Shown here one piece after another: positions 1,770-33,557 of a DNA stretch of 64,000 nucleotides (its first letter is position 1; every line of letters starts with the position of its first letter). The notes below the pieces were generated by a model. That model saw nothing but the letters and a program-made list of their open reading frames with translations, was not told the origin of the DNA and ran no database searches. This DNA is from Eledone cirrhosa (Eukaryota). The position numbers and the translations under genes are program-made. The stretch lies in assembly GCA_964016885.1 (NCBI GenBank), contig OZ024766.1, positions 11,036,001 to 11,100,000 on the forward strand, in the 5' to 3' direction.

Positions 1770-4700
1770 CATATTGAGAAGGGTCTGGCTAGTTGGCCAC
1801 ACCGTTCCTTGGTCGAAGCAGACCCAAATTTTGGGAGCTTTGTAGTCTCATTTTGAAGAGGGTTTAACCAGTTGGTTGCTCCCGTCCTTGCTCTATCTGA
1901 ACTGTATTTTGGGAGCTGGGTGGTTCCACTATGAAAGATGTCTGGCCGCAGGCCACACCACACCTTGGTCATATCAAAACCATATTTTGGGAACATTGTA
2001 GTCCCACTATGAGGGGGGTCTGGTCAGTTGGACATCACCGTACCTGGGTCAAAGCAGAGCCATATTTTGTGAGCAGAGTAGCCCCCTTTTGAGGAGGGTC
2101 TGACCCGTTGGCTGATCCTGACCTCTCATATTTGATCCTGACCTCTCATATTTGATCCCGACCTCTCATATTTGATCCTGACCTCTCATATTTGATCCCG
2201 ACCTCTCATATTTGATCCCGACCTCTCATATTTGATCCTGACCTCTCATATTTGATCCTGACCTCTCATATTTGATCCCGACCTCTCATATTTGATCCTG
2301 ACCTCTCATATTTGATCCCGACCTCTCATATTTGATCCTGACCTCTCATATTTGATCCTGACCTCTCATATTTGATCCTGACCTCTCATATTTGATCCCG
2401 ACCTCTCATATTTGATCCCGACCTCTCATATTTGATCCTGACCTCTCATATTTGATCCCGACCTCTCATATTTGATCCTGACCTCTCATATTTGATCCCG
2501 ACCTCTCATATTTGATCCTGACCTCTCATATTTGATCCCGACCTCTCATATTTGATCCTGACCTCTCATATTTGATCCCGACCTCTCATATTTGATCCTG
2601 ACCTCTCATATTTGATCCTGACCTCTCATATTTGATCCCGACCTCTCATATTTGATCCTGACCTCTCATATTTGATCCCGACCTCTCATATTTGATCCTG
2701 ACCTCTCATATTTGATCCTGACCTCTCATATTTGATCCTGACCTCTCATATTTGATCCTGACCTCTCATATTTGATCCCGACCTCTCATATTTGATCCTG
2801 ACCTCTCATATTTGAACTATATTTTTGGAGGTGGGTGGTTCCACTATGAGGAGGGTCTGGTCAGTTGGACACACCGTACCTTGGTCAAAGCAGACCCATA
2901 TTTTGAGAGCAGAGTAGTCCTCTTTTGAGGATGGTCTGACCCGTTGGCTGATCCTGACCTCTCATATTTGATCCTGCTCATATTTAAAACCCTATTTTAG
3001 GAGGTGGGTGGGTGGTTCCACTATGAGGAGGGTCTGGTCAGTTGGACACACCATACCTTGGTCAAAGCAGAACCATATTTTGGGAGGTGGGTGGTCCCAC
3101 TATGAGAAGGGTCTGGTCAGTTGGCTAATCCTGACCTCTCATATTTGATCCTGCTCATATTTAAAACCATATTTTAGGAGGTGGGTGGGTGGTTCCATTA
3201 TGAGGAGGGTCTGGTTAGTTGGACACACCATACCTTGGTCAAAGCAGAACCATATTTTGGGAGGTGGGTGGTCCCACTATGAGAAGGGTCTGGTCAGTTG
3301 GCTTCTCTAGACCTTGCTCATATCTGAACTGTATCTTGGGAACTGGGTTGTCCAGCTATAAGAGACATCTGGCTAGTTAGCCACAGCAGACCTTGGTCAA
3401 AGCAGAACCATATTTTGGGAACTGAGAGGTCCAGTTATGAAAGATGCCTGGCCCCTTGACCATGCCATACCTTGCTCATATTTGAACAGAATTTTGGGAA
3501 CTTTGCAGTCCCACTATGAGGAGGGTCTGGTCAGTTGGACACACCATACCTTGCTCAAAGCAGAACCATATTTTGGGAACTGGGTAGTCCGACTATGAGG
3601 AGGGTCCGGCCAGTTGACCATGCCATAACTTGGTCATAGCAGACCCATATTTTGGGAGCTGGGTGAACCCATTATGAGAAGGGTTGGGGTAGTTGGCTGC
3701 ACCATACCTTGTTTATATTTGATCCACATTTTGGAAGCTGGGTAGACCCACTATGAGGAGTGTCTGGTCAGTTGGACACGCCATACCTTGGTCAAAGCGG
3801 ACCCATATTTTGGAAGCTAGGTGGTCCGGTTATGGCAGAAGTCTGGCTAGTTGACCACACCACTGCACCTTGGTCATAGGGGGACTGTATTTTGGGAGCT
3901 GGGTGGTCCAGTTATGGCAGAAGTCTGGCTAGTTGACCACACTGCACCTTGGTCATAGGGGGACTGTATTTTGGAAGCTAGGTGGTCCAGTTATGGCAGA
4001 AGTCTGGCTAGTTGACCACACTGCACCTTGGTCATAGGGGGACTGTATTTTGGGAGCTGGGTGGTCCAGTTATGGCAGAAGTCTGGCTAGTTGACCACAC
4101 TGCACCTTGGTCATAGGGGGACTGTATTTTGGGAGCTGGGTGGTCCAGTTATGGCAGAAGTCTGGCTAGTTGACCACACTGCACCTTGGTCATAGGGGGA
4201 CTGTATTTTGGGAGCTGGGTGGTCCAGTTATTTCAGAAGTCTGGCTAGTTGACCACACTGCACCTTGGTCATAGGGGGACTGTATTTTGGGAGTTGGGTG
4301 GTCCAGTTATGGCAGAAGTCTGGCTAGTTGACCACACTGCACCTTGGTCATAGGGGGACTGTATTTTGGGAGCTGGGTGGTCCAGTTATGGCAGAAGTCT
4401 GGCTAGTTGACCACACTGCACCTTGGTCATAGGGGGACTGTATTTTGTGAGCTGGGTGGTCCAGTTATGGCAGAAGTCTGGCTAGTTGACCACACTGCAC
4501 CTTGGTCATAGGGGGACTGTATTTTGGGAGTTGGGTGGTCCAGTTATGGCAGAAGTCTGGCTAGTTGACCACACTGCACCTTGGTCATAGGGGGACTGTA
4601 TTTTGGGAGCTGGGTGGTCCAGTTATGGCAGAAGTCTGGCTAGTTGACCACACTGCACCTTGGTCATAGGGGGACTGTATTTTGGGAGTTGGGTGGTCCA

Positions 4701-7700
4701 GTTATGGCAGAAGTCTGGCTAGTTGACCACACTGCACCTTGGTCATAGGGGGACTGTATTTTGGGAGCTGGGTGGTCCAGTTATGGCAGAAGTCTGGCTA
4801 GTTGACCACACTGCACCTTGGTCATAGGGGGACTGTATTTTGGGAGTTGGGTGGTCCAGTTATGGCAGAAGTCTGGCTAGTTGACCACACTGCACCTTGG
4901 TCATAGGGGGACTGTATTTTGGGAGCTAGGTGGTCCAGTTATGGCAGAAGTCTGGCTAGTTGACCACACTGCACCTTGGTCATAGGGGGACTAGGTGGTC
5001 CAGTTATGGCAGAAGTCTGGCTAGTTGACCACACTGCACCTTGGTCATAGGGAGACTGTATTTTGGGAGTTGGGTGGTCCAGTTATGGCAGAAGTCTGGC
5101 TAGTTGACCACACTGCACCTTGGTCATAGGGGGACTGTATTTTGGGAGCTAGGTGGTCCAGTTATGGCAGAAGTCTGGCTAGTTGACCACACTGCACCTT
5201 GGTCATAGGGGGACTGTATTTTGGGAGCTAGGTGGTCCAGTTATGGCAGAAGTCTGGCTAGTTGACCACACTGCACCTTGGTCATAGGGGGACTGTATTT
5301 TGGGAGTTGGGTGGTCCAGTTATGGCAGAAGTCTGGCTAGTTGACCACACTGCTGCACCTTGGTCATAGGGGGACTGTATTTTGGGAGCTGGGTGGTCCA
5401 GTTATGGCAGAAGTCTGGCTAGTTGACACACTGCACCTTGGTCATAGGGGGACTGTATTTTGGGAGTTGGGTGGTCCAGTTATGGCAGAAGTCTGGCTAG
5501 TTGACCACACTGCACCTTGGTCATAGGGGGACTGTATTTTGGGAGCTAGGTGGTCCAGTTATGGCAGAAGTCTGGCTAGTTGACCACACTGCACCTTGGT
5601 CATAGGGGGACTGTATTTTGGGAGTTGGGTGGTCCAGTTATGGCAGAAGTCTGGCTAGTTGACCACACTGCACCTTGGTCATAGGGGGACTGTATTTTGG
5701 GAGCTGGGTGGTCCAGTTATGGCAGAAGTCTGGCTAGTTGACACACTGCACCTTGGTCATAGGGGGACTGTATTTTGGGAGTTGGGTGGTCCAGTTATGG
5801 CAGAAGTCTGGCTAGTTGACCACACTGCACCTTGGTCATAGGGGGACTGTATTTTGGGAGCTAGGTGGTCCAGTTATGGCAGAAGTCTGGCTAGTTGACC
5901 ACACTGCACCTTGGTCATAGGGGGACTGTATTTTGGGAGCTGGGTGGTCCAGTTATGGCAGAAGCCTGGCTAGTTGACCACACTGCACCTTGGTCATAGG
6001 GGGACTGTATTTTGGGAGCTGGGTGGTCCAGTTATGGCAGAAGTCTGGCTAGTTGACCACACTGCACCTTGGTCATAGGGGGACTGTATTTTGGGAGCTG
6101 GGTGGTCCAGTTATGGCAGAAGTCTGGCTAGTTGACCACACTGCACCTTGGTCATAGGGGGACTGTATTTTGGGAGCTGGGTGGTCCAGTTATGGCAGAA
6201 GTCTGGCTAGTTGACCACACTGCACCTTGGTCATAGGGGGACTGTATTTTGGGAGCTGGGTGGTCCAGTTATGGCAGAAGTCTGGCTAGTTGACCACACT
6301 GCACCTTGGTCATAGGGGGACTGTATTTTGGGAGCTGGGTGGTCCAGTTATGGCAGAAGTCTGGCTAGTTGACCACACTGCACCTTGGTCATAGGGGGAC
6401 TGTATTTTGGGAGCTGGGTGGTCCAGTTATGGCAGAAGTCTGGCTAGTTGACCACACTGCACCTTGGTCATAGGGGGACTGTATTTTGGGAGTTGGGTGG
6501 TCCAGTTATGGCAGAAGTCTGGCTAGTTGACCACACTGCACCTTGGTCATAGGGGGACTGTATTTTGGGAGTTGGGTGGTCCAGTTATGGCAGAAGTCTG
6601 GCTAGTTGACCACACTGCACCTTGGTCATAGGGGGACTGTATTTTGGGAGTTGGGTGGTCCAGTTATGGCAGAAGTCTGGCTAGTTGACCACACTGCACC
6701 TTGGTCATAGGGAGACTGTATTTTGGGAGTTGGGTGGTCCAGTTATGGCAGAAGTCTGGCTAGTTGACCACACTGCACCTTGGTCATAGGGGGACTGTAT
6801 TTTGGGAGTTGGGTGGTCCAGTTATGGCAGAAGTCTGGCTAGTTGACCACACTGCACCTTGGTCATAGGGGGACTGTATTTTGGGAGTTGGGTGGTCCAG
6901 TTATGGCAGAAGTCTGGCTAGTTGACCACACTGCACCTTGGTCATAGGGAGACTGTATTTTGGGAGTTGGGTGGTCCAGTTATGGCAGAAGTCTGGCTAG
7001 TTGACCACACTGCACCTTGGTCATAGGGGGACTGTATTTTGGGAGTTGGGTGGTCCAGTTATGGCAGAAGTCTGGCTAGTTGACCACACTGCACCTTGGT
7101 CATAGGGGGACTGTATTTTGGGAGTTGGGTGGTCCAGTTATGGCAGAAGTCTGGCTAGTTGACCACACTGCACCTTGGTCATAGGGAGACTGTATTTTGG
7201 GAGTTGGGTGGTCCAGTTATGGCAGAAGTCTGGCTAGTTGACCACACTGCACCTTGGTCATAGGGAGACTGTATTTTGGGAGTTGGGTGGTCCAGTTATG
7301 GCAGAAGTCTGGCTAGTTGACCACACTGCACCTTGGTCATAGGGGGACTGTATTTTGGGAGTTGGGTGGTCCAGTTATGGCAGAAGTCTGGCTAGTTGAC
7401 CACACTGCACCTTGGTCATAGGGGGACTGTATTTTGGGAGTTGGGTGGTCCAGTTATGGCAGAAGTCTGGCTAGTTGACCACACTGCACCTTGGTCATAG
7501 GGGGACTGTATTTTGGGAGTTGGGTGGTCCAGTTATGGCAGAAGTCTGGCTAGTTGACCACACTGCACCTTGGTCATAGGGGGACTGTATTTTGGGAGTT
7601 GGGTGGTCCAGTTATGGCAGAAGTCTGGCTAGTTGACCACACTGCACCTTGGTCATAGGGGGACTGTATTTTGGGAGCTGGGTGGTCCAGTTATGGCAGA

Positions 7701-9250
7701 AGTCTGGCTAGTTGACCACACTGCACCTTGGTCATAGGGGGACTGTATTTTGGGAGTTGGGTGGTCCAGTTATGGCAGAAGTCTGGCTAGTTGACCACAC
7801 TGCACCTTGGTCATAGGGGGACTGTATTTTGGAAGCTAGGTGGTCCAGTTATGGCAGAAGTCTGGCTAGTTGACCACACTGCACCTTGGTCATAGGGGGA
7901 CTGTATTTTGGGAGCTGGGTGGTCCAGTTATGGCAGAAGTCTGGCTAGTTGACCACACTGCACCTTGGTCATAGGGGGACTGTATTTTGGGAGTTGGGTG
8001 GTCCAGTTATGGCAGAAGTCTGGCTAGTTGACCACACTGCACCTTGGTCATAGGGGGACTGTATTTTGGGAGTTGGGTGGTCCAGTTATTGCAGAAGTCA
8101 GGCTAGTTGACCACACTGCACCTTGGTCATAGGGGGACTGTATTTTGGGAGCTGGGTGGTCCAGTTATGGCAGAAGTCTGGCTAGTTGACCACACTGCAC
8201 CTTGGTCATAGGGGGACTGTATTTTGGGAGCTAGGTGGTCCAGTTATGGCAGAAGTCTGGCTAGTTGACCACACTGCACCTTGGTCATAGGGGGACTGTA
8301 TTTTGGGAGCTGGGTGGTCCAGTTATGGCAGAAGTCTGGCTAGTTGACCACACTGCACCTTGGTCATAGGGGGACTGTATTTTGGGAGTTGGGTGGTCCA
8401 GTTATGGCAGAAGTCTGGCTAGTTGACCACACTGCACCTTGGTCATAGGGGGACTGTATTTTGGGAGTTGGGTGGTCCAGTTATTGCAGAAGTCTGGCTA
8501 GTTGACCACACTGCACCTTGGTCATAGGGGGACTGTATTTTGGGAGCTGGGTGGTCCAGTTATGGCAGAAGTCTGGCTAGTTGACCACACTGCACCTTGG
8601 TCATAGGGGGACTGTATTTTGGGAGCTGGGTGGTCCAGTTATGGCAGAAGTCTGGCTAGTTGACCACACTGCACCTTGGTCATAGGGGGACTGTATTTTG
8701 GGAGCTGGGTGGTCCAGTTTTGGCAGAAGTCTGGCTAGTTGACCACACTGCACCTTGGTCATAGGGGGACTGTATTTTGGGAGTTGGGTGGTCCAGTTAT
8801 GGCAGAAGTCTGGCTAGTTGACCACACTGCACCTTGGTCATAGGGGGACTGTATTTTGGAAGCTAGGTGGTCCAGTTATGGCAGAAGTCTGGCTAGTTGA
8901 CCACACTGCACCTTGGTCATAGGGGGACTGTATTTTGGGAGCTGGGTGGTCCAGTTATGGCAGAAGTCTGGCTAGTTGACCACACTGCACCTTGGTCATA
9001 GGGGGACTGTATTTTGGGAGCTGGGTGGTCCAGTTATGGCAGAAGTCTGGCTAGTTGACCACACTGCACCTTGGTCATAGGGGGACTGTATTTTGGGAGC
9101 TGGGTGGTCCAGTTTTGGCAGAAGTCTGGCTAGTTGACCACTCTGCACCTTGGTCATAGGGGGACTGTATTTTGGGAGCTAGGTGGTCCAGTTATGGCAG
9201 AAGTCTGGCTAGTTGACCACACTGCACCTTGGTCATAGGGGGACTGTATT
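1770..9250. repeat. 78/79-bp satellite: diverged units 1770-3820, homogeneous 79-bp array ~3820-9250 (~69 units)
   Basis: Unit ggtggtccagttatggcagaagtctggctagttgaccacactgcaccttggtcatagggggactgtattttgggagctg. Confidence 0.95.
2113..2815. repeat. 20-bp minisatellite (~35 copies) nested in the 78-bp satellite
   Basis: tgatcc(t/c)gacctctcatatt repeated. Confidence 0.95.
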
Positions 9251-9272
9251 TATAAAAGAAAAATGTACTTAC

Positions 9273-13661: not shown

Positions 13662-14001
13662 AGGCACATGGCTTAGTGGTTAGAGGTTAGAGCATTGGCC
13701 TTGCAATCGAAAGGTTGTGAGTTCAATTCTCAGACCGGGTGATGTGTTGTTTCCTTGAGCAAGACACTTTATTTCACATTGCTCCAGTTTACTCAGCTGT
13801 AGAAATGAGATGATAGGGACTGGGGTCCCTATCATTCCACTGCAAAGTGGTCGTGGAGGTGCCTCGGCAAAAAAGCACCCAGCACTCACTGTAAATGAGG
13901 TTGGGGTTAGGAAGGGCATCCAGCTGTAGAAATCAAGCCAGAATCAGTTCCCGTCTCACCCTTGCAAGCAGGGAAGAAGCGGACGTAAAATGAAATGATG
14001 A
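13662..14001 (+). mobile_element. tRNA-headed CORE-type SINE with RTE-derived tail (family A)
   Basis: A box TGGCTTAGTGG, B box GAGTTCAATTC, CORE-like ccttgagcaagacacttt...ctcagctgtagaaatgag, and 3' end shared with the RTE fragments. Confidence 0.85.
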
Positions 14002-14004
14002 TAT

Positions 14005-14265
14005 AATCATCATCATCATCATCATCAACGTTTAACGTCCGTGTTCCACGCTTGCATGGGTTTGGACGGGGGTAGTCCCACGTGAGGCAAGAATGATTGT
14101 CTTGCTCGCATAGGACTGTCTGGCGGGTTTTCTACAGTTGGATGCCCTTCCTAACACCAACCACATTTACAGTGTGGGGCTGGGAGGTTTTTACCGTGTT
14201 GCCTACACGGCCACATTACAGCGTGGACTGTGTGTTTTTTTGTCGTGACACCTACACGATCTCAT
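14005..14265 (-). mobile_element. Non-autonomous RTE-related element (no tRNA head)
   Basis: gttggtgttaggaagggcatcc motif and ccatgcaagcgtggaacacggacgttaaac(gat)n tail; near-identical copy at 27760. Confidence 0.7.
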
Positions 14266-14283
14266 TATATATATATATATATA

Positions 14284-15745
14284 TAATATATTTAGAAACA
14301 CACAGATACATGCGGACACACACATATATACATGAATGCATCCGCACCCAACTGTGAGTTAAGGGTGCCAACTTCACCGATGTTGCTCAATGAATGACCG
14401 GGACAGACCAATTCAGTTGAACTAGACTGAACCAGTATCAGAGTTAAAATACATTATGAAGAGAGAAGAAACATTTAGATATAATTAGTAATAAAATGTA
14501 TCATACCTAAACTGCTCCTAAATTCCTCGACTACGTAGTTTCGTGGCATAAACAAAAACAATATATCATAAAGACATAGAGTCCTTGCGAGGTCTGCCGA
14601 CTTATCAAGAGGATACCTCATTTTACTAGTCTCAAGAACGCGTCTACACGACGTGAGAAAGAATCCCAAAAGGCGGAGGGGGAGATAGTCACACGATATA
14701 ACGGTCGAGAAACAGAGCTAAGCCTCTTATAACCCCGAAGAAAATACCACGGAGGCGGAGGGGGTATTTATATCGAGGCCGCAGAAGAGGTGGTGAAGAA
14801 GGCGAGAAGTATGAGTAAAGGAAGCTTTCCAGCTGTCCCCACACTTCAAAGATTGCTCGACCAGAGGGAGTTATTAACAATATATTTAGAAACACACAGA
14901 TACATGCGGACACACACATATATACATGAATGCATCCGCACCCAACTGTGAGTTAAGGGTGCCAACTTCACCGATGTTGCTCAATGAATGACCGGGACAG
15001 ACCAATTCAGTTGAACTAGACTGAACCAGTATCAGAGTTAAAATACATTATGAAGAGAGAAGAAACATTTAGATATAAATTTAGGAGCAGTTTAGGTATG
15101 ATACATTTTATTACTAATTATATCTAAATGTTTCTTCTCTCTTCATAATGTATTTTAACTCTGATACTGGTTCAGTCTAGTTCAACTGAATTGGTCTGTC
15201 CCGGTCATTCATTGAGCAACATCGGTGAAGTTGGCACCCTTAACTCACAGTTGGGTGCGGATGCATTCATGTATATATGAGTGTGTCCGCATGTATCTGT
15301 GTGTTTCTAAATATATTGTTAATAACTCCCTCTGGTCGAGCAATCTTTGAAGTGTGGGGACAGCTGGAAAGCTTCCATTACTCATACTTCTCGCCTTCTT
15401 CACCACCTCTTCTGCGGCCTCGATATAAATACCCCCTCCGCCTCCGTGGTATTTTCTTCGGGGTTATAAGAGGCTTAGCTCTGTTTCTCGACCGTTATAT
15501 CGCGTGACTATCTCCCCCTCCGCCTTTTGGGATTCTTTCTCACGTCGTGTAGACGCGTTCTTGAGACTAGTAAAATGAGGTATCCTCTTGATAAGTCGGC
15601 AGACCTCGCAAGGACTCTATGTCTTTATGATATATTGTTTTTGTTTATGCCACGAAACTACGTAGTCGAGGAATTTAGGAGCAGTTTAGGTATGATACAT
15701 TTTATTACTAATTATATCTAAATGTTTCTTCTCTCTTCATAATGT
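14284..15745. mobile_element. Inverted pair of >1 tandem 594-nt hammerhead-containing units (retrozyme/Penelope-LTR-like)
   Basis: 594-nt periodicity in both arms (14285/14879; 15078/15672); arms are reverse complements; (TA)n flanks. Confidence 0.75.
15583..15672 (+). ncRNA. Type I hammerhead ribozyme motif with U3:A8 core (mirror 14524-14613, minus)
   Basis: Helix I TCCTC/GAGGA, core TTGATAA, helix II GT(c)GGCA/TGCCAC, GAAA, palindromic CTACGTAG, GTC cleavage (after 15667). Confidence 0.72.
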
Positions 15746-15773
15746 ATATATATATATATATATATATATCCAG

Positions 15774-15816
<43 letters not shown>

Positions 15817-15834
15817 CACCTGGATATATATATA

Positions 15835-16175
15835 TATACAAAGATATTAAATAAATGGAAACTATATTTATAAAACCATATTTATTCTATTATATATATT
15901 TCAAGGGTACCAAAAATTTTGGTACGCTATCATCAGATAAAATATGAAGTGTGTTTTATAAATATATGTCATAACCAAGGATAATATACCTTAACGGTTC
16001 AAGTTATCCCCGGATAATATTTTATCTGATGATAAAATACTTCATATTTTATGATAAAATACTTCGTATTTTATCTGATGATATCATACCAAAATTTTTG
16101 GTACCCTTGAAATATATATAATAGAATAAATATGGTTTTATAAATATAGTTTCCATTTATTTAATATCTTTGTAT
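15835..16175. repeat. Foldback inverted repeat carrying a hammerhead in each arm, tail to ~16268
   Basis: tacaaagatattaaataaatggaaac... / ...gtttccatttatttaatatctttgta. Confidence 0.85.
16068..16127 (+). ncRNA. Type I hammerhead motif (mirror 15884-15943, minus)
   Basis: ATTTTAT/ATAGAAT helix I, CTGATGA, TACC/GGTA stem, GAAA, TATATA, TA cleavage; homologous copy at 53501. Confidence 0.68.
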
Positions 16176-16271
16176 ATTATACTCCAGAAAACTTGTTGAG
16201 TGCTCTGAATCAGTTATAAACATTTATATTTGTTGAATTACCAACAAATTGAATATCCCTTCTGCTTATAT

Positions 16272-16614
16272 CATTTTCATCACTTCATTTCATTTTTACG
16301 TCCACTTTTCCCTGCTTGCAAGGATGGGACGGGAACTGATTCTGGCTTGATTTCTACAGCTGGATGCCCTTCCTAACACCAACCTCATTTACAGTGAGTG
16401 CTGAGTGCTTTTTTACCGTGGCACCTCCACGACCACTTTGCAGTGGAATGATAGGGACCCCAGTCCCTATCATCTCATTTCTACAGCTGAGTAAACTGAA
16501 GCAACGTGAAATAAAGTGTCTTGCTCAAAGAAACAACGCATCACCCGGTCTGAGAATTGAACTCACAACCTTTTGATTGCAAGGCCAATGCTCTAACCAC
16601 TAAGCCATGTGCCT
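16272..16614 (-). mobile_element. SINE family A copy
   Basis: Reverse complement of 13662-14001. Confidence 0.85.
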
Positions 16615-33179: not shown

Positions 33180-33520
33180 ATCATTATCATCATCATCATC
33201 ATCATCATTTTACGTCCACTTTTCCCTGCTTGGAAGGGTGAGACGGGAACTGACTCTGGCTTGATTTCTACAGCTGGATGCCCTTCCTAACACAAACCTC
33301 ATTTACAGTGAGTGCTGGGTGCTTTTTTGCCGTGGCACATCCACGACCACTTTGCAGTGGAATGATATGGACCCCAGTCCCTATCATCTCATTTCTACAG
33401 CTGAGTAAACTGGAGCAATGTGAAATAAAGTGTCTTGCTCAAGGAAACAACACATCACCCGGTCTGAGAATTGAACTCACAACCTTTCGATTGCAAGGCC
33501 AATGCTCTAACCACTAAGCC
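33180..33520 (-). mobile_element. SINE family A copy
   Basis: Near-identical to the other copies. Confidence 0.85.
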
Positions 33521-33557
33521 AGGGTGGTTTTCTGCTAGTAATTATAATAATACTTAC

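Follow-up and report, generated by a model that had tools for sequence, protein, structure and literature searches.

In the 64,000-nt stretch of Eledone cirrhosa DNA that we analyzed (the window), we identify a 1,463-nt insertion that is flanked on both sides by (TA)n tracts and made of two arms lying head to head, with their 5′ ends meeting centrally (Table 1). The first-pass annotation had placed it at 14284..15745; the insertion is confirmed, with its ends corrected to 14285 and 15747. As the annotation had also proposed, each arm holds more than one copy of a non-coding unit, which we number u1-u594 from window positions 15078-15671 on the + strand. Both arms contain direct repeats spaced by 594 nt, 207 nt long in one and 76 nt long in the other, the inverted repeat between the arms is 630 nt long, and the arms disagree at three unit positions. 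The unit length of 594 nt given earlier holds for the window copy and is unique to it, being the result of a 1-nt deletion present in both arms, whereas the nearest relatives have units of 595 nt. Read as a circle, the unit has a longest stop-to-stop frame of 87 aa, a GC content of 42%, and a self-pairing z score of -7.1 relative to shuffled sequences, with 0 of 100 shuffles folding as well. Since the target is a (TA)n repeat, a target-site duplication is not resolvable inside it.

Table 1. Features of the insertion (positions are those of the window; c, predicted cleavage site)
Feature	Position	Strand	Details
Left (TA)n target tract	14265..14284	.	
Left arm	14285..15078	-	read 15078 to 14285 = u41-594 + u1-240; 794 nt, 1.34 units
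Left arm 3′ end	priming site 2 (about c+245)	-	adjoins (TA)n
Tail	14285..14448	-	164 nt (u77-u240), between the two priming sites; terminal in one arm only
Left-arm hammerhead	14524..14613	-	identical to that of the right arm; predicted cleavage between 14529 and 14528
Head-to-head junction of 5′-truncated arms	15077..15079	.	1-nt overlap at 15078
Right arm	15078..15747	+	u1-594 + u1-76; 670 nt, 1.13 units
Full non-coding unit	15078..15671	+	594 nt; family units about 588-595 nt
Right-arm type I hammerhead	15583..15672	+	motif and descriptor test
Helix I, TCCTC/GAGGA	15583-15587/15668-15672	+	
Core UUGAUAA	15588-15594	+	U3 15588 to A9 15594; A8 = 15593
Long helix II hairpin	15595-15653	+	
Helix III palindrome, CTACGTAG	15658-15665	+	core also with GAAA
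Predicted cleavage, right arm	after C15667	+	
Right arm 3′ end	priming site 1 (c+80)	+	adjoins (TA)n
Right (TA)n target tract	15748..15770	.	

Other repeats surround the insertion. Two repeats that are 96% identical lie in opposite orientation on its two sides (window 13680-13975 and 16308-16603); the one at 13680-13975 opens with a tRNA-like head, like the Rfam tRNA hit at 33456-33525, and the pair is probably a SINE family. A further inverted repeat of 135 nt is found at 15834-16177, and the region 2113-9251 is made of large arrays whose tandem periods are 20 and 79 nt, the 79-mer array containing about 69 copies that are 97-98% alike.

A motif search and a descriptor test bore out the proposal that each arm carries one hammerhead with a perfect helix I, a palindrome and a UUGAUAA core; at the Rfam gathering threshold, the window hammerhead is not reported. 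The unit is also multi-copy, as had been expected: an 18-nt motif from the 3′ half of the hammerhead has 7,696 exact hits in the genome (reversed control, 0), and the first 100 of these come from 48 loci, so that about 3,700 loci would be expected by extrapolation. A search of the same genome returned 182 matches from the 39 of 1,695 candidates that were scored, with 95-100% identity among the matches listed, and old copies are 80-90% identical. The unit is thus a young, high-copy family. We analyzed three sets of copies, i.e., the 39 best-scoring insertions (first set), 47 insertions in chromosome order (second set) and 38 further multi-hit loci picked by two allele patterns (third set). Greater-than-unit inserts, which the annotation had predicted, are common, with 115 of 188 arms exceeding 600 nt and arms of ordinary insertions reaching 7 consecutive units; in the window copy, each strand has a single hammerhead. 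One locus (L216) contains two identical two-armed insertions 2.55 kb apart, which are either a segmental duplication or an assembly artefact. Plant LTR retrozymes have type III hammerheads in LTRs, with 4-bp duplications; the unit differs from them in that its hammerhead topology is type I and its copies are tandem, with no LTR pair.

In none of the 86 insertions of the first and second sets does the unit continue into an open reading frame, and none has an ORF encoding a reverse transcriptase (RT) and a GIY-YIG domain joined to it; instead, in all 86, the 47 from the chromosome-order set among them, the unit runs on into itself with a period of 595 nt. Of 7 ORFs scanned in the neighborhood of sampled copies, 4 are RT fragments, none of them joined to the unit. 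These observations bear on the reading that the units are the pLTRs of an unfound autonomous Penelope-like element and that the copies are its truncated insertions. The end rule described below, the inverted arm, the tail, the TA target and the U3:A8 core are all Penelope traits, as sections of PMC8557442 and PMC4209133 describe them, and just 50 of the 10,597 GIY-YIG candidates in the genome were inspected, yet a unit that re-enters itself at 595 nt and never an ORF makes this reading highly improbable, as does the share of contigs that continue into unlike sequence, which is 0 in sequencing run X1. The contigs, from four sequencing runs, represent older subfamilies, and one of them returns at 595 nt, for which tandem DNA is also an explanation. 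We also considered, and rejected, one locus (L182) as a chimera of the unit and Penelope: the 5′ end of a unit arm adjoins a small Penelope remnant that itself has two arms, and a TA tract between them is lacking (L182:3110-3240), an arrangement readable as a nested insertion.

The hammerhead core is kept across the family. In the first set, U3 and A8 are present in all 116 complete hammerheads (39 loci), and the other core changes are a G10.1 change in four units of L034 and three changes in single units. Among the 98 motif hits of the second set, helix I and the core are complete in 87, U3:G8 occurs in one and an A9 change in another, with the remaining hits truncated or missed by the pattern; C3 is absent from all hammerheads of both sets. 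In old copies, the 5′ half of the motif, which played no part in selection, shows 0 of 65 differences compared with 423 of 2,900 elsewhere (p 4e-5), although this count comes from five segments that are not independent. The random decay of the core that would have told against the annotation is therefore not what old copies show, and with a multi-copy unit, arms longer than a unit, no attached ORF and a kept core, none of the genomic observations it had named against itself was made. Other features of the hammerhead are less favorable. The extension of helix II shows only one-sided, pair-keeping changes that are not above the shuffle control, and the hammerhead alignment contains no double-sided compensatory change and has a covariation score that does not exceed this control, which we count against our preferred explanation. 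In L034, the G10.1 change alters a helix II base in all four hammerheads, which we likewise count against this explanation.

The U3:A8 pair, which the annotation had described as compensatory, is not special to the unit. This pair is already published for hammerheads of Schistosoma Penelope-like elements (PMC4209133) and for other natural hammerheads (PMC3088659), in the sections of these papers that deal with such cores. In the genome under study, several distinct Penelope-like families have U3:A8-type cores (L079, L082-L086, L092, L093 and L096-L098), and canonical C3:G8 type I hammerheads are also found (L081, L082, L084-L086 and L095). Since the variant is common to several resident families, the core singles out no partner family.

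The main signal at these loci, which the annotation had overlooked, is a pair of fixed 3′ ends that match the Penelope tail. Arms end either at u~76 (c+80, site 1) or at u~240 (about c+245, site 2), and these ends nearly always run into (TA)n, so that no target-site duplication is resolvable across the copies. When both ends of a two-armed copy lie at fixed sites, they are almost always one of each kind: we count 67 copies with site 1 and site 2, one with site 1 twice, and none with site 2 twice. By script, the mixed pair was found in 24 of 25, 21 of 23 and 21 of 25 two-armed copies of the three sets, with one more assigned by eye (L250, which has an adjoining fragment). The exceptions are L021, with site 1 at both ends, and five copies with one end elsewhere; one of these five is old, and the other four are short scraps in inverted orientation at the 5′ junction. 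One-armed insertions follow the same rule, with a fixed-site end in 48 of 50 (leaving out the old locus L189). Junctions between arms overlap by 1-11 nt in 49 of 69 two-armed copies.

The 5′ ends, in contrast to the fixed 3′ ends, are scattered. The annotation had correctly noted that the right arm of the window copy begins 4 nt past the predicted cleavage site, i.e., at the equivalent of c+5; as the signature of a cleaved end this position is at chance level, since 3 of 188 5′ ends fall within c+1 to c+10 compared with 3.2 expected (five old loci excluded). The distribution has only broad peaks, at u151-200 and u326-425, and a transcription start, which would give a sharp peak, was rejected for this reason. 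The polarity of both arms, with fixed 3′ and random 5′ ends, also bears on movement of the element as DNA, through a rolling-circle or extrachromosomal circle with no RNA step. Circular DNA would likewise give seamless, homogeneous concatemers, and the evidence for the unit comes here from DNA alone, but polarized arms, an end rule that matches an RT-encoding element and a conserved ribozyme core leave this route extremely improbable.

Variation among units informs on the template. Across 120 loci, common markers were present in all, in some or in none of the units in 277, 13 and 1,244 cases, respectively, and, with one giant array excluded, 32 locus-private substitutions are found in all covering units compared with 3 that are partial. 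For example, in a 14-unit insertion (L031) one variant is present in 13 of 13 units across both arms, and in the window copy the private 1-nt deletion is present in all three covering units. A single haplotype over all units and both arms would be explained by a monomer read many times. The joins between units are seamless in 122 of 122 cases in the first set, with two imperfect joins in later sets (L209 and L234). Such a haplotype would also result if the template were a linear cleaved monomer, with the RT jumping from end to end on the same molecule, which likewise requires an active hammerhead; a count of 5′ ends out to 20 nt from the cleavage site gives 16, slightly more than the 12.7 expected. 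However, all 122 joins are unchanged and there is no pile-up of 5′ ends just past the cleavage site, which favors a covalent circle over end-to-end jumping and makes the linear monomer a very unlikely template. The data favor a circular monomer as the putative template.

A different pattern is seen in the giant array, a 20-kb, two-armed array of 34 units that ends at site 2 and site 1 (L256-L258; G000:C1:193981004-194001326) and is located about 0.5 Mb from L031. In its long arm, variants recur every 3, 4 or 6 units, and this higher-order periodicity, in contrast to ordinary insertions, points to growth at the DNA level after insertion; we interpret the array as a satellite growing out of a retrozyme insertion. 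Such growth means that linear multimer transcripts are a possible source of copies, and so keeps alive a model that retains the Penelope-like enzyme and its priming at two sites but has as template an uncut linear multimer, made by transcription of a homogeneous tandem array, with the hammerhead secondary. Consistent with this model, uncut RNA is the dominant template in vitro (PMC11167929), long arrays do exist, and all units of L034 share an altered helix II base. We nevertheless regard it as unlikely, because private variants that fill all units and both arms would require a monomer bottleneck, because ordinary insertions are without the partial, periodic sharing of variants seen in the DNA-grown array, and because the core is kept in old copies.

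We consider it likely that the window copy arose by insertion of a non-autonomous retrozyme for which a circular RNA was the template and a Penelope-like (Neptune/Nematis-type) RT-endonuclease the copying enzyme. A source with two or more same-strand hammerheads would be transcribed, and these hammerheads, probably dimeric through the helix III palindrome, would release a monomer of ~595 nt that a host ligase would circularize. A Penelope-like protein, probably a dimer, would nick both (TA)n strands and use both sites of a single RNA for priming, site 1 for one strand and site 2 for the other; copying round the circle would extend each strand over a variable distance, and the two cDNA ends would join via short microhomology to give head-to-head arms. 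With only one hammerhead per strand, the window copy itself is probably a dead-end product. The earlier proposal of a reverse-transcribed circular or oligomeric hammerhead RNA is thus supported in part, by the copy number, the greater-than-unit arms and the kept core, and not by its points on the junction and the U3:A8 pair.

A candidate for the enzyme is present in the same genome. The L079 family (L079 and L129-L147) encodes an RT with a C-terminal GIY-YIG domain (Pfam) and has a C-x4-C-xx-C linker, the motif of Neptune/Nematis-type elements as described in a section of PMC8557442. The family is young, with a period of about 4,979 nt, longer-than-unit arms and 11,632 exact hits to its hammerhead motif; no start-to-stop frame spans the whole coding region in any of 21 copies, the longest being 930 aa. 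Copies end only at c+82 or c+150, in (TA)n, and among 26 loci all 15 two-armed copies have one end of each kind. Site 1 is therefore almost equally distant from cleavage in this family and in the unit (+82 versus +80), whereas the tails differ (68 nt versus 164 nt). The unit has no overall similarity to the L079 pLTR, with 609 of 1000 shuffles scoring as high, and is not alignable to it, and descent from this pLTR is not supported; around site 1, 730 of 1000 shuffles score as high, and around site 2, 14 of 1000. Comparison with the other Penelope-like loci, from the 50 of 10,597 candidates inspected, likewise revealed no overall similarity. A common end rule with no pLTR similarity gives support that reaches the class of enzyme and not a family, and at this level a Penelope-like copying enzyme is well supported. 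A purified Penelope-like protein is reported to nick and extend both strands from two internal RT starts, to which the Penelope tail has been traced, and is a predicted dimer (PMC11167929). In the same in vitro system, hammerhead cleavage is dispensable for Penelope insertion and uncut RNA is the main template, which we count against the circle model. Seven further loci (L007, L008, L027, L039, L042, L213 and L219) contain short L079-pLTR remnants, several of them two-armed, which begin at c-64 to c-72 beside a splice-donor-like motif and are possibly copies of the front end of the transcript.

Metazoan non-LTR retrozymes, in the sections of the two sources concerned with them, are head-to-tail non-coding units of 51-972 bp, and Penelope-like elements are proposed to copy them from circular templates (Cervera & de la Pena 2020, PMC7229834; Li, Clavereau & Pollet 2026, bioRxiv 10.64898/2026.07.22.740005). 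Further traits of the group are transcription, self-cleavage and accumulation of circular RNA and, from Li et al., a sequence relationship with a resident Penelope-like pLTR. The unit, which we know from genomic sequence only, shares the DNA-level features of this group, i.e., one type I hammerhead per unit, a GC content of <50%, a short palindromic helix III and a fitting length, and differs from its described members in the U3:A8 core, the long helix II hairpin and the lack of a pLTR relative in our comparisons. The unit also occurs as dispersed insertions that have two arms and whose two fixed ends lie in (TA)n, a trait that the retrozyme sections of these papers do not describe. Our literature search, which was largely of main texts, returned no paper on such a family in octopus. 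With EN+ Neptune/Nematis-type Penelope-like elements, as described in parts of PMC8557442, PMC3846280 and PMC11167929, the unit shares head-to-head 5′-truncated arms, extension at only one end, two priming sites shortly past the hammerhead, a TA-rich target and microhomology joins; arms in inverted orientation, like tails, have been described before in Penelope elements (PMC3846280). Unlike them, it has no ORF, a 595-nt period and many units per arm, and its tail of 164 nt exceeds the 30-40 bp reported for Penelope-like elements in the sections that give this length.

The compensatory core pair is shared with the minimal U3-A8 hammerheads of Schistosoma Cercyon (PMC4209133) and with natural U3/A8 hammerheads (PMC3088659), and such variants are reported active in vitro in the relevant sections of both papers; in contrast to these, the hammerheads described here belong to a non-autonomous tandem unit, their helix II is extended, and their helix III has 2 bp and is capped by the palindrome. 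The unit also resembles non-autonomous Chlamys elements, e.g., MRC1, as a Penelope-like passenger with multicopy head-to-tail insertions. As a section of PMC8557442 describes them, however, these elements have 3′ ends similar to those of their autonomous partners, and canonical hammerheads are missing from most Chlamys elements, whereas the unit has a hammerhead and no clear homology to a partner.

The element is real and young, and its value lies mostly in the tests of the Penelope mechanism that it allows. Both this type of element and the U3:A8 core were already known; the retrozyme papers, in their relevant sections, propose circles and Penelope mobilization without evidence from insertion ends such as that given here. 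In the papers considered, both the origin of inverted, longer-than-unit Penelope insertions and the movement of retrozymes by Penelope are hypotheses. With thousands of young insertions, two priming sites mapped on a candidate template of 595 nt, and a resident enzyme family that follows an identical end rule, the circle and two-site models can be tested, both in vitro and by census. We tentatively propose, as an idea that is plausible but falls somewhat short of probable, that each insertion records one enzyme-RNA complex, in which a Penelope-type dimer, acting on one RNA circle, primes both nicked (TA)n strands at two sites that are not equivalent and then proceeds round the circle. If true, this would account for three traits of all Penelope-like insertions, namely the tail, the inverted arm and a length greater than one unit.

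As part of this tentative proposal, a template-level excess of A>G changes could mean that ADAR edits of the circle are written into the genome, a part that did not replicate on new sites. In the first set, sense-strand A>G accounts for 20 of 46 template-level variants compared with 6 of 108 single-unit variants. The bias did not recur in a strict replication (2 of 13 private variants that were new), and new sites gave 5 of 40 compared with 9 of 111 (p 0.52); pooled, the counts are 28 of 96 and 18 of 254 (p 4e-7). A literature search returned no relevant paper joining retrozymes with ADAR editing, and we treat the possible template-level, ADAR-like bias as a lead only. ADAR avoids a 5′ G, and the A>G sites show a weak depletion of 5′ G (2 of 27, p 0.048).
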